DNA of 64,000 bases from Shigella phage ESh15. Below the pieces are notes generated by a model, which searched no databases, had not been told where the DNA came from, and was given only the letters and a program-made list of their open reading frames with translations. The stretch lies in sequence record ON528725; one strand, written 5' to 3'. The number at the start of each line of letters is the position of its first letter. Positions within the stretch are counted from its first letter, which is position 1. A program made the translations under genes and the position numbers. Of the stretch, positions 11,543 to 17,836 are shown in pieces.

Positions 11543-12499
11543 TTATTTGAAAGGTTTTACCATATGGAAATTTTGTTTGAAACGTTTTACATAATCGTCA
11601 TGTCCTAAGCTTTGGTACATACTTACAACTTTGCTGTAGTTTTCCCAAGCGTATTCACGGAACCAGCCTGACGTGATTGAAGTACAGACCTTTTCAAGAG
11701 CCATCATAAAACTATCACGTGGATGGATTTTAAAGTCATTAGGAATCTGAGAACGTTCTAATGCTAGTACACATGATTCTTCGTATACACCGGCCAATTT
11801 GACCATTTCTGGTAATGATTCGAACTTCTCGCGTGAGGTCATGACTTCAGAACCATCTTTCATGTAAAACGTATAAGCAGGGCGGTCTGTTAGTGCAATG
11901 GCTTCGTGAATAGTATCATGATCGTATGTGTAGATGTCATCTTTAAAGAATGCGCTTTTAGAAGTGTCAAGAACCGGGTGAGCATAGTTCAATGTTTCTT
12001 TCTGGCGTTTAAGCATAATTTCAGTAAGTTCATCGTTCAGTGTAACACCTTTACCACGAAGATACTGAATATGGTTCATAGTCTTTAAAAAGAATGGATT
12101 ATTTTTCTTGAAACGATGAGACATCTTAATTGCAAGACACATCTCAGGAGTTGCCCAGTAAAACCCGTTCAAACGATCTTTAGTCAAATTTTTCTTGGCG
12201 TATTTTAAAAGGTCATAAGAAGACGTGAAATCTTCAGGAGTGAGTTCACCAACTAATTCACGGACATTAGTGATTGCCGGAACAATATATGCTTCAAAAT
12301 GAGTTTCGCGTCCATTATGGAAGCATTTGAAAACTTGGACATCAGGGTTATCTTGGTGAACATATACACCCATCATTTGATTTTTGAATGCATTCCAAGA
12401 ACCTTGGTCCGCAATAAAGTCCCAATCACTATTTTTGATAGCGCTAGAATCAATAAGGCCGTGATAGTGAAGTGCACGAGAACCAATAACTAACATCAT
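11543..12499 (-). CDS. hypothetical protein (318 aa)
   Basis: ATG ATG at 12494-12499 with GAGGA SD; N-terminal GS...DWD pattern weakly reminiscent of a nucleotidyltransferase. Confidence 0.55.
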   Translation of the reverse strand: MMLVIGSRALHYHGLIDSSAIKNSDWDFIADQGSWNAFKNQMMGVYVHQDNPDVQVFKCFHNGRETHFEAYIVPAITNVRELVGELTPEDFTSSYDLLKYAKKNLTKDRLNGFYWATPEMCLAIKMSHRFKKNNPFFLKTMNHIQYLRGKGVTLNDELTEIMLKRQKETLNYAHPVLDTSKSAFFKDDIYTYDHDTIHEAIALTDRPAYTFYMKDGSEVMTSREKFESLPEMVKLAGVYEESCVLALERSQIPNDFKIHPRDSFMMALEKVCTSITSGWFREYAWENYSKVVSMYQSLGHDDYVKRFKQNFHMVKPFK

Positions 12500-12524: not shown

Positions 12525-12764
12525 TTAAATTTCACGACATGCGATATTATATTCATCCCAGAGGTCATCATGTGAAGCCTCTACCAATGGAACGATTGTA
12601 CCATTTATGTCTTCATTATAAGGACAAATTGTACAGTGCGCATCTTCGAATCGGATGCCTTTGTGTTCAGATTTTTTATAACGCATATCGAATATCTTTG
12701 CAAACTTTTCACGAGTAATAGTTTTAGCAACTACTTCGGTTCCGATACTTTCGTAATAAATCAT
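12525..12764 (-). CDS. hypothetical Cys-containing small protein (79 aa)
   Basis: ATG 12762-12764 with GGAG SD; HCTICP motif. Confidence 0.45.
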   Translation of the reverse strand: MIYYESIGTEVVAKTITREKFAKIFDMRYKKSEHKGIRFEDAHCTICPYNEDINGTIVPLVEASHDDLWDEYNIACREI

Positions 12765-12790
12765 TGTGGACTCCATTTAATTTGATAGGA

Positions 12791-12822
12791 CTACTATAAC
12801 ATAGCCCTATCTTGTTGTAAAC
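12791..12822 (-). promoter_or_regulatory. early promoter cassette
   Basis: gtaaac 12817-12822; -10 TATAGT; inverted repeat with one mismatch. Confidence 0.55.
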
Positions 12823-12827
12823 TGTTT

Positions 12828-13025
12828 TTAGCAAGAATAACTAGATGATACCCAGCCTTGAACAGTAATACTATTATTTGATAACGAGATCGCGTCCTGG
12901 AGATTCAGACCTGCGTTATCTTCAATCCATAATGTAACTTCTTCGCGTTCTTCTGTTGCAATTTGGAACAGGTTTTCCAGAGCAGCTACTGCCGTACGTA
13001 CAGCACAATCTAATTCACGAGACAT
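12828..13025 (-). CDS. small protein, member 3 of tandem GWVSSSxxC family (65 aa)
   Basis: C-terminus QGWVSSSYSC; AAGGA SD junction identical in style to the two upstream paralogs. Confidence 0.5.
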   Translation of the reverse strand: MSRELDCAVRTAVAALENLFQIATEEREEVTLWIEDNAGLNLQDAISLSNNSITVQGWVSSSYSC

Positions 13026-13034
13026 ATTGTTTCC

Positions 13035-13307
13035 TTAGCAAGTGTGAGAAGATGCAACCCAACCGCCATCTTCAAGGCTCAGGTTGTAGTCGTATTGGTA
13101 AACGTCAGCCCATTCAGCATAGCCGTTTTTTGTACAACGTTCAAGATCGGCTTTAAGATGTCCTGGTGAATGATAGGTTCCACCCATACCATAAGCTGGA
13201 TACAAGTCAAATGTTGTGTTTTGTTTATTGGCAATTTCTTTGGCTGCCTCAATAGCTGCATAGATTTTTGCTACGGCTTCAGCCAGTTCGGTTTGTTCTT
13301 TAGACAT
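13035..13307 (-). CDS. small protein, member 2 of tandem GWVSSSxxC family (90 aa)
   Basis: C-terminus DGGWVASSHTC; internal YGMGGTYHSPG motif shared with member 1. Confidence 0.5.
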   Translation of the reverse strand: MSKEQTELAEAVAKIYAAIEAAKEIANKQNTTFDLYPAYGMGGTYHSPGHLKADLERCTKNGYAEWADVYQYDYNLSLEDGGWVASSHTC

Positions 13308-13316
13308 AATGATTCC

Positions 13317-13622
13317 TTAGCACAATGCAGAAGACGAAACCCAAGCACCTTCAGTAATAACGTAACCATTACCTTCACGCTTAACGTCGCCACCATTATT
13401 TTCAATTTCATTTTTCATCCACTGGGATACGATTTCACCCTTAGGATAATAAGTACGACCGCTACCATAATCACCTACAGAAAATGATACAGCATATTGG
13501 TCTGCGATCTTTGTTGCTTCTTCTTCGATACGTTCAGCTTGATTCAGAAGTTTATAAATTGCATCTGAAGCGGATTTGGCATCATTAAACTCTGGCACTT
13601 TAATTTCAATAATCTTACTCAT
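13317..13622 (-). CDS. small protein, member 1 of tandem GWVSSSxxC family (101 aa)
   Basis: C-terminus EGAWVSSSALC; internal YGSGRTYYPKG motif; AAGGA SD. Confidence 0.5.
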   Translation of the reverse strand: MSKIIEIKVPEFNDAKSASDAIYKLLNQAERIEEEATKIADQYAVSFSVGDYGSGRTYYPKGEIVSQWMKNEIENNGGDVKREGNGYVITEGAWVSSSALC

Positions 13623-13680
13623 TTTCTACATTCCTTAATAAAGTTTTCGATTGTTTCATTTTCACGTCTAGCTAGGAGTT

Positions 13681-13710
13681 CATTATAACTAATCATTTGA
13701 GAAGCGTAAA
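13681..13710 (-). promoter_or_regulatory. early promoter (-35 GTTTAC, -10 TTATAAT) for the triplet
   Basis: gtaaac 13705-13710; plus attataa 13681-13687; 17-nt spacer. Confidence 0.55.
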
Positions 13711-13720
13711 CAGCATAAAT

Positions 13721-17681: not shown

Positions 17682-17758
<77 letters not shown>

Positions 17759-17761
17759 GAT

Positions 17762-17836
17762 TGGTGACCCTGGCTGGTTTCGATCCAGCTACCTATCAGT
17801 TATGAGCTGACAGCTCTCCCATTGAGCTACAGGGCC
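17762..17836 (-). tRNA. tRNA with CAT anticodon (Ile-CAU/lysidine type or Met)
   Basis: hand-folded cloverleaf: acceptor GGCCCTG/CAGGGTC, D-stem GCTC/GAGC, anticodon loop CTCATAA, T-arm GCTGG-ATCGAAA-CCAGC, encoded CCA; 3 nt from tRNA-Arg. Confidence 0.7.

Follow-up and report, generated by a model that had tools for sequence, protein, structure and literature searches.

The 64,000 nucleotides of Shigella phage ESh15 that we analyzed (sequence record ON528725, hereafter the window) carry three adjacent genes whose small products end in a common C-terminal tail. Genes with this tail are found in many phages, upstream of a gene encoding a nucleotidyltransferase-fold enzyme. The linkage between the two is near-obligate and co-directional, and the dependence is asymmetric, i.e., the enzyme can stand alone whereas the tail genes were never seen alone. 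We tentatively propose, giving this reading somewhat less than an even chance, that the tail proteins are clients of the co-encoded MenT/AbiEii-like nucleotidyltransferase, with the tail as the acceptor, in a two-component module restricted to phages.

Three genes with a common tail in Shigella phage ESh15

The window is 96-97% identical to Mosigvirus (RB69-like) phages. The initial annotation had described three adjacent minus-strand open reading frames (ORFs) of 101, 90, and 65 aa with one common C-terminal tail, and the ORF list and the translations confirmed this. Tail protein 1 (101 aa, RB69ORF139c type, 13317..13622) ends in GAWVSSSALC, tail protein 2 (90 aa, RB69ORF137c type, 'YGMGGTY' subfamily, 13035..13307) in GGWVASSHTC, and tail protein 3 (65 aa, RB69ORF136c type, 12828..13025) in QGWVSSSYSC. 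The corresponding tail codons, all on the minus strand, are located at 13320..13343 (WVSSSALC), 13038..13061 (WVASSHTC), and 12831..12854 (WVSSSYSC). Proteins 1 and 2 also have the internal motif that had been reported for them (YGSGRTYYPKG and YGMGGTYHSPG, respectively), and protein 3 is devoid of the YGxGxTY loop. When compared in pairs using BLASTP, the paralogues align over their C-terminal parts only (E-values of 1e-4 and 6e-4). The tail pattern was matched by 3 of the 502 ORFs of the window, which are exactly the triplet, and by none of the 1259 ORFs in the whole T4 genome. The recurrence of the tail in the triplet is far above chance.

The three genes are the equivalents of RB69ORF139c, 137c, and 136c, which are 'hypothetical' in annotated relatives and located there between e.2/nudE and e.3-e.6. 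In T4, e.2 abuts e.3. A search of the whole T4 genome revealed no HMM match at E<=10 for either the small-protein or the enzyme profile, and the motif scan found no tail; the early statement that the family cannot be placed in T4 was therefore correct. The RB69 reference ORF139c has 71 aa and is identical to the window protein through residue 68, after which it reads ...WYEK and has no tail. Since it ends without the tail, the comparison of the two sequences points to a frameshift or sequencing error in the reference, which probably accounts for the separate 'ORF138c'. In phage JK45 a neighbor gene is labeled 'sulfurtransferase'. We rejected this label because the matching ORF of the window has two strongly hydrophobic stretches, is membrane-protein-like, and falls in a PHROG of unknown function. 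Genes for tRNA-Arg(tct) and tRNA-Met(cat) are located around 4 kb upstream of the triplet, in the same orientation (17682-17836, minus strand).

The junctions within the triplet are as stereotyped as had been claimed (TGC TAA GGA AtC AtT ATG TCT and TGC TAA GGA AaC AaT ATG TCT), and TAAGGAA also stands before the first gene. Such near-identical junctions would be consistent with Shine-Dalgarno-coupled translation. A consensus scan identified an early-type promoter-like site upstream of the triplet, (G)TTTACG-17-TATAAT (10/12, 13682..13710, minus strand), and a second one, TTTACA-17-TATAGT with a TG, between the triplet and the genes for an 83-aa protein and the enzyme (10/12, 12793..12821, minus strand). 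The initial annotation had the triplet driven by one promoter. A sigma-70/T4-early-like site is indeed present at 13710..13682, but it is a consensus match only and a second such site follows the triplet. Besides, sites of this type are not in excess in the region (10 found against 10.6 expected from shuffled sequence). An imperfect hairpin, called a terminator in the annotation of one relative, overlaps the site at 12793-12821, and the triplet and the enzyme gene may be separate transcription units. The gene e.3 is absent from 13623-13720 of the window, where the first promoter-like site occupies the space. Many close relatives do have e.3 at this place, overlapping the beginning of the first triplet gene, and their alignment to the window comes in two parts, with around 240 bp of additional sequence.

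Conservation of the tail

Profile searches left the family without a functional name in PHROG, Pfam, NCBIfam, or PADLOC. Proteins 1 and 2 match phrog_899 (E-values of 1.8e-22 and 2.2e-18) and protein 3 matches phrog_4882 (1.1e-36), both of 'unknown' function; their E-values against our family HMM are 7e-25, 9.9e-31, and 1.1e-11, respectively. None of the three proteins has a match in Pfam, NCBIfam, or PADLOC, since we regard the marginal, below-threshold Pfam matches to Peptidase_S78_2 and E217_Gp32 as noise, and the larger N-terminal bodies of the long members of the family gave nothing useful in Pfam. Single-sequence and profile searches of the PDB returned low-complexity helix matches only. 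The monomer model of tail protein 1 is a confidently folded domain, predicted as a small antiparallel sheet with a long helix packed on it. A Foldseek search of viral models retrieved family members alone, every one of them 'uncharacterized'. The body of the 65-aa type consists of a helix and a hairpin. Of 5.8 billion proteins searched with a profile, 181 matched, none of them named, and an exhaustive HMMER search identified 977 clusters (at 50% identity) with E<=1e-3 among 1.84 billion representatives, 401 of them with E<=1e-10. Among the matches listed, lengths range from 68 to 175 aa and the alignment reaches the C-terminus or stops at most one residue short of it.

To describe the tail, we aligned the first 121 sequences retrieved, six of which came from an earlier single-sequence search. 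A W..SS..C end is present in 111 of them. The invariant positions are one Gly of the YGxG loop, W-7, S-4, and C0, and S-3 is nearly invariant, being at times replaced by Thr. The consensus is W-x-x-S-S-(x0-3)-C, at most one residue away from the C-terminus. Hence, the terminal Cys emphasized by the initial annotation is invariant in the alignment, but it is neither strictly terminal nor strictly spaced: four proteins have one extra residue beyond it, and the SS-to-C spacing is 0, 2, or 3 residues, some members having the spacer-free variant W-x-x-S-S-C. A subfamily of 74-80 aa, absent from the window, contains the motif twice, as DW-x-x-S-S-C-YGE inside the protein and as W-x-x-S-S-C at its end. 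JS98-like, Marfa-like, and Aeromonas phages encode this subfamily (loci L010-L018, L044-L056 etc., e.g., L015 3709-3933). Outside the tail, the bodies (60-175 aa) are unrelated between subfamilies. The family is acidic, with a median pI of 4.5 and 94% of the values below 6, and 153 of 247 members have exactly one Cys. Among 114 distinct tail DNAs we found all six Ser codons (TCN and AGY) at both Ser positions, Cys in either of its codons, and each of the three stops. This mixed usage means that selection acts on the amino acids and not on an RNA signal. The tail is thus under strong selection at the amino-acid level, and what it keeps invariant is a chemistry of two hydroxyls and a thiol beside a free carboxylate.

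Peptides of the epidermin type have a ring between a Ser and a C-terminal Cys three residues on, and the common variant of the tail, with Ser at -3 and a terminal Cys, has the same i, i+3 spacing. One might thus think of RiPP-like precursors whose S-x-x-C C-terminus is cyclised to a lanthionine or aminovinyl-cysteine-type ring. We regard this as highly improbable: no gene for a dehydratase, a cyclase, a LanD-type flavoprotein/decarboxylase, or a radical-SAM protein is conserved nearby, the proteins are predicted to be confidently folded domains and not leader-core peptides, and the variants with W-x-x-S-S-C or with the Cys at +8 break the spacing.

The partner nucleotidyltransferase

On the same strand as the triplet, 330 bp downstream of the last tail gene, lies the gene of the enzyme (318 aa, RB69ORF134c type, 11543..12499, minus strand). 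The intervening gene encodes 83 aa (RB69ORF135c type, phrog_3723 by PHROG match, 12525..12776, minus strand). Pfam assigns to the enzyme DUF7277, an N-terminal Pol-beta-type nucleotidyltransferase core, followed by DUF7275. The Pol-beta nucleotidyltransferase fold comes with the G[GS]...DxD motif and the third carboxylate. Structural comparison indicates a MenT-like fold, with TM1012 and LnuA further down the ranking; around 145 of the 318 residues align structurally and the helical C-terminal half has no match. Among 78 homologues, with identities as low as around 47%, G6-S7, D25-x-D27, E69, and K125/H128 never vary. With its catalytic residues invariant, the enzyme is presumably active. In spite of the fold, it is no demonstrable member of the DUF1814/AbiEii sequence family: the 78 members matched DUF7275 and DUF7277 only, even at E<=10, with no match to Pfam AbiEii/DUF1814. 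PADLOC gave nothing for the enzyme and NCBIfam a single sub-threshold match, hisJ_fam (18.2 bits for a cut-off of 90.2 bits).

The enzyme is common, with more than 2,200 clusters at 90% identity and, by tblastn, 734 sequenced phage records. The phages carrying it include therapeutic-type coliphages as well as Klebsiella, Acinetobacter, Aeromonas, and Pseudomonas phages. Some public records label its homologues 'prohead assembly scaffold protein' or 'HNS-dependent protein', which look like annotation errors, and, in Acinetobacter phages, 'putative nucleotidyltransferase'. In one metagenomic homologue (P0175, 308 aa), the DUF7275 part is fused to an N-terminal signal/lipoprotein-like DUF1190 segment that replaces the DUF7277 core. 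The protein may reflect a chimeric assembly, or the exchange of domains may be genuine.

Linkage between the tail genes and the enzyme

We collected 88 enzyme loci in two scans of IMG/VR and one scan of GTDB genomes. The automatic scoring found upstream tail ORFs on the same strand in 80 of the 88, with 1-5 tail ORFs per positive locus. All of the 209 tail-pattern ORFs in the 88 loci are on the strand of the enzyme and none is on the opposite one. Upon inspection, three of the eight automatic negatives turned out to be positive, one because of start-codon calling (L041) and two having short-spacer tails (L024 and L037), and one more corresponds to a contig end. Tail genes are thus upstream of the enzyme and co-directional in around 83 of 87 evaluable loci, and the true negatives are restricted to L019 and to the lineage of L065/66/70/85. 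L019, a CC31-like phage of 165,540 bp, and L065, L066, L070, and L085 have the enzyme, with the 2.5 kb upstream of it free of tail genes; moreover, the enzyme ORF of L070 is broken into two parts of 55 and 209 aa. Starting from the small proteins, we searched 33 loci found through the YGMGGTY subfamily. The enzyme is at most around 1.4 kb downstream in 31 of them and the other two are contig ends, so that no tail gene without the enzyme was seen in this set.

The pairing is present in Mosigvirus, Dhakavirus, Karamvirus, Tulanevirus, Otagovirus, and Phapecoctavirus, and in Acinetobacter and Myxococcus phages. Karamvirus, Tulanevirus, Otagovirus, and Phapecoctavirus have an enzyme gene of around 300 aa after the tail genes, and in the Acinetobacter phages and Myxococcus phage Mx1 canonical tail genes are immediately upstream of the enzyme. 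Among the 185,579 species genomes of GTDB we found only five loci, all on MAG contigs. The module is restricted to phage contigs, mostly large, and is not on plasmids or chromosomes. We then clustered the neighbors of the enzyme across 32 lineages (<70% identity), and the tail-protein clusters were the only broadly co-occurring families. The cluster of the 83-aa gene is confined to one enzyme lineage, i.e., this gene is lineage-specific and outside the conserved core. Fusions between the enzyme and the small proteins, or enzymes bearing a tail, were not found (0/120).

These results put the initial reading of the tail in a different light. The suggestion of a modification, a metal ligand, or a docking tag went in the right direction, but it was anchored to nothing. 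It missed the decisive context, a nucleotidyltransferase-fold gene located 330 bp downstream to which the tail genes are linked almost without exception. A role of the tail that is independent of the enzyme, with the linkage reflecting co-regulation only, can be imagined: metal or disulfide bridging between subunits via the Cys, a degradation or sorting tag, or a redox function. Most members have a single Cys (153/247), the two W-x-x-S-S-C units of the double-motif subfamily are around 25 residues apart and could pair, and the modules of Aeromonas phages are near thioredoxin and glutaredoxin genes. Against this, co-directional adjacency over 32 lineages, in phages of hosts from Enterobacteria to Myxococcus and with no other conserved neighbor, makes a linkage free of coupling very unlikely, and we give such roles a very small probability.

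Possible roles as regulators or clients of the enzyme

More distant DUF7275-like enzymes were found in Gordonia phage ClubL (L130), Streptomyces phage TunaTartare (L131), Vibrio phage ValKK3 (L132), and DSS3_VP1 (L133), where Cys-tail genes are absent. The first three enzymes are shorter (around 255 aa) and flanked by a different family of small acidic proteins of around 100 aa (..RYF[RK]..GYY.S[WY].G..W.G..VEV.P..); that of DSS3_VP1 has 301 aa. An RNA ligase gene is directly upstream of the enzyme in TunaTartare, RNA ligase 2 and a phosphoesterase are encoded around 1-2 kb upstream in DSS3_VP1, and a tRNA cluster is near the enzyme in ClubL. The RNA ligase and tRNA neighbors of these distant relatives suggest an RNA substrate or an RNA-end function for the enzyme.

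If so, the small proteins might be MenA-like regulators, which would bind a nucleotidyltransferase acting on tRNA or RNA 3' ends and restrain or tune it, the tail plugging or reshaping the active site without being modified itself. The neighborhoods of the distant relatives fit such a role, and so do the gene order, with the small gene preceding that of the MenT-fold enzyme as in MenAT1, and the similar size of the small protein. A long N-terminal helix is predicted in the tail proteins, and MenA1 works via a single extended helix (PMC11375011). Finally, their acidity (median pI of 4.5) makes mimicry of the tRNA acceptor arm possible. We nevertheless hold this role to be unlikely. The enzyme persists without tail genes and never the converse, which is the reverse of the usual toxin/antitoxin pattern, and a single toxin would hardly account for as many as five paralogues in one genome, ancient and divergent as they are. 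Conservation is limited to the tail and does not extend to the N-terminal bodies. We found no similarity in sequence or fold to MenA1, MenA3, or AbiEi, and the module is on phage contigs, mostly large, and not on plasmids or chromosomes. It is the reversed asymmetry, together with the number of paralogues, that leads us to prefer a client role to that of an antitoxin.

A possible mechanism

According to the proposal that the tail proteins are clients, each of these small acidic proteins would have its own N-terminal body and one common tail that the enzyme recognizes. It is likely that the tail physically contacts the enzyme. In the predicted model it extends just around five residues past the last strand, and with so short a protrusion the whole small-protein domain would need to dock closely on the enzyme. 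The tail would enter the active-site cleft, where the hydroxyl of the invariant tail Ser would take the position of the tRNA 3'-OH of MenT toxins and become nucleotidylylated or, in the manner of MenT auto-phosphorylation, phosphorylated. Anchoring or metal contacts would be provided by the Trp and by the terminal Cys/carboxylate. There are precedents for the chemistry: MenT active sites can transfer phosphate to Ser or Thr (PMC11375011), and the Pol-beta-type MntA covalently polyadenylylates its neighbor protein HepT (PMC7641770). By analogy with the two, Ser modification would be the most likely step. Covalent modification of the tail Ser is possible, at somewhat less than even chances. Several different early proteins of host takeover or counter-defence would thereby be switched in their activity together; the early-promoter context, the acidity, and the small size of the clients are typical of such proteins and would be in line with this role.

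Some observations do not fit easily. Modification of the Ser does not by itself account for the invariant Cys. The variable SS-C spacing and the internal second copy of the motif suit a loosely bound tag equally well as a precise acceptor. Furthermore, those enzymes of the closest structural family that have been characterized use tRNA or antibiotics as substrates, not proteins. One may then ask if the small proteins could be targeting adaptors, with the variable body binding a host or phage target and the common tail docking on the enzyme, so that nucleotidylylation is directed to several targets. Variable bodies next to a constant tail, the copy number of 1-5 with orthologues kept across genera (e.g., the 65-aa type), and the dependence of the tail genes on the presence of the enzyme would all be accounted for. 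A docking peptide, in contrast, would have no need of an invariant Cys or of two invariant serines kept across the TCN/AGY boxes. The bodies are also of very small size, and no known target-binding domain was detected in them, which makes adaptors of this sort distinctly improbable. If the tail proteins are instead clients, as we prefer, a bolder version can be formulated, in which phages have a tag-directed protein modification of their own: the MenT-like enzyme would read the W-x-x-S-S..C tag on up to five early proteins and either nucleotidylylate it or use its Ser as a primer for template-independent addition, resulting in protein-linked (oligo)nucleotides acting in host takeover or counter-defence. 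We consider this version rather doubtful.

Comparison with known systems

The closest arrangement is MenAT1 of Mycobacterium tuberculosis, in which MenT1, a DUF1814 nucleotidyltransferase, is paired with the 7.4-kDa helical MenA1; the phage module likewise combines a small protein with a MenT-fold enzyme. There is, however, no sequence or Pfam relationship between the two systems, the phage enzyme being DUF7277/DUF7275 and not DUF1814. It is also around 120 aa longer, with its C-terminal half unmatched. Where MenAT1 has a single small gene, the phage module has 1-5, and the W-x-x-S-S..C tail that defines their products is missing from MenA1. Moreover, it is confined to phages, and its enzyme occurs without the small genes and not the reverse. 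For the proposed mechanism, the best precedent would be HepT/MntA (HEPN/MNT, type VII), where a minimal Pol-beta enzyme modifies a hydroxyl side chain of the product of the adjacent gene (PMC7641770). The substrates differ, since HepT is a HEPN RNase modified on Tyr whereas the phage proteins offer Ser and Cys in a terminal tail; we found no Pfam match to a HEPN domain (Rx4-6H) in the tail proteins, and their predicted fold is not HEPN-like. The phage enzyme is much larger than MntA and belongs to the MenT/ANT(2'') branch.

In GlnD/PII and GlnE/glutamine synthetase, too, a Pol-beta-fold enzyme switches the activity of a protein by nucleotidylylating one of its hydroxyls. Their sequences are unrelated to those of the phage module, and the modified residue is a loop Tyr of a conserved metabolic regulator, with no terminal tag and no multi-client array. 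To our knowledge, the combination of a tail tag and a dedicated transferase has no described precedent on a MenT-like fold. The window proteins are members of PHROG 899/4882 and Pfam DUF7277/DUF7275, entries that give no function, tail motif, or gene linkage, and our literature search found no paper on the module, the tail, the linkage, or these families. The Pol-beta family described in a comparative paper on jumbo phages is another one, RlaP, which is associated with RNA ligase; the DUF7277/DUF7275 enzyme is not mentioned there.

Owing to the strict linkage, what had been a group of 'hypothetical proteins' now leads to a concrete hypothesis that is cheap to test. If the tail is a modification tag, it would represent a new enzyme-client logic in early phage biology and widen the known substrate range of MenT/AbiEii-type nucleotidyltransferases. 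Should the small proteins prove to be regulators, a MenAT-like module would for the first time be known as a stable component of lytic phage genomes. The fold of the enzyme is already known, as are the pairing of a small protein with a MenT-fold enzyme (MenAT1) and the covalent modification of a neighbor (HepT/MntA). What is new with respect to both systems are the multi-copy, tail-tagged putative clients, the restriction to phages, and the reversed dependence.
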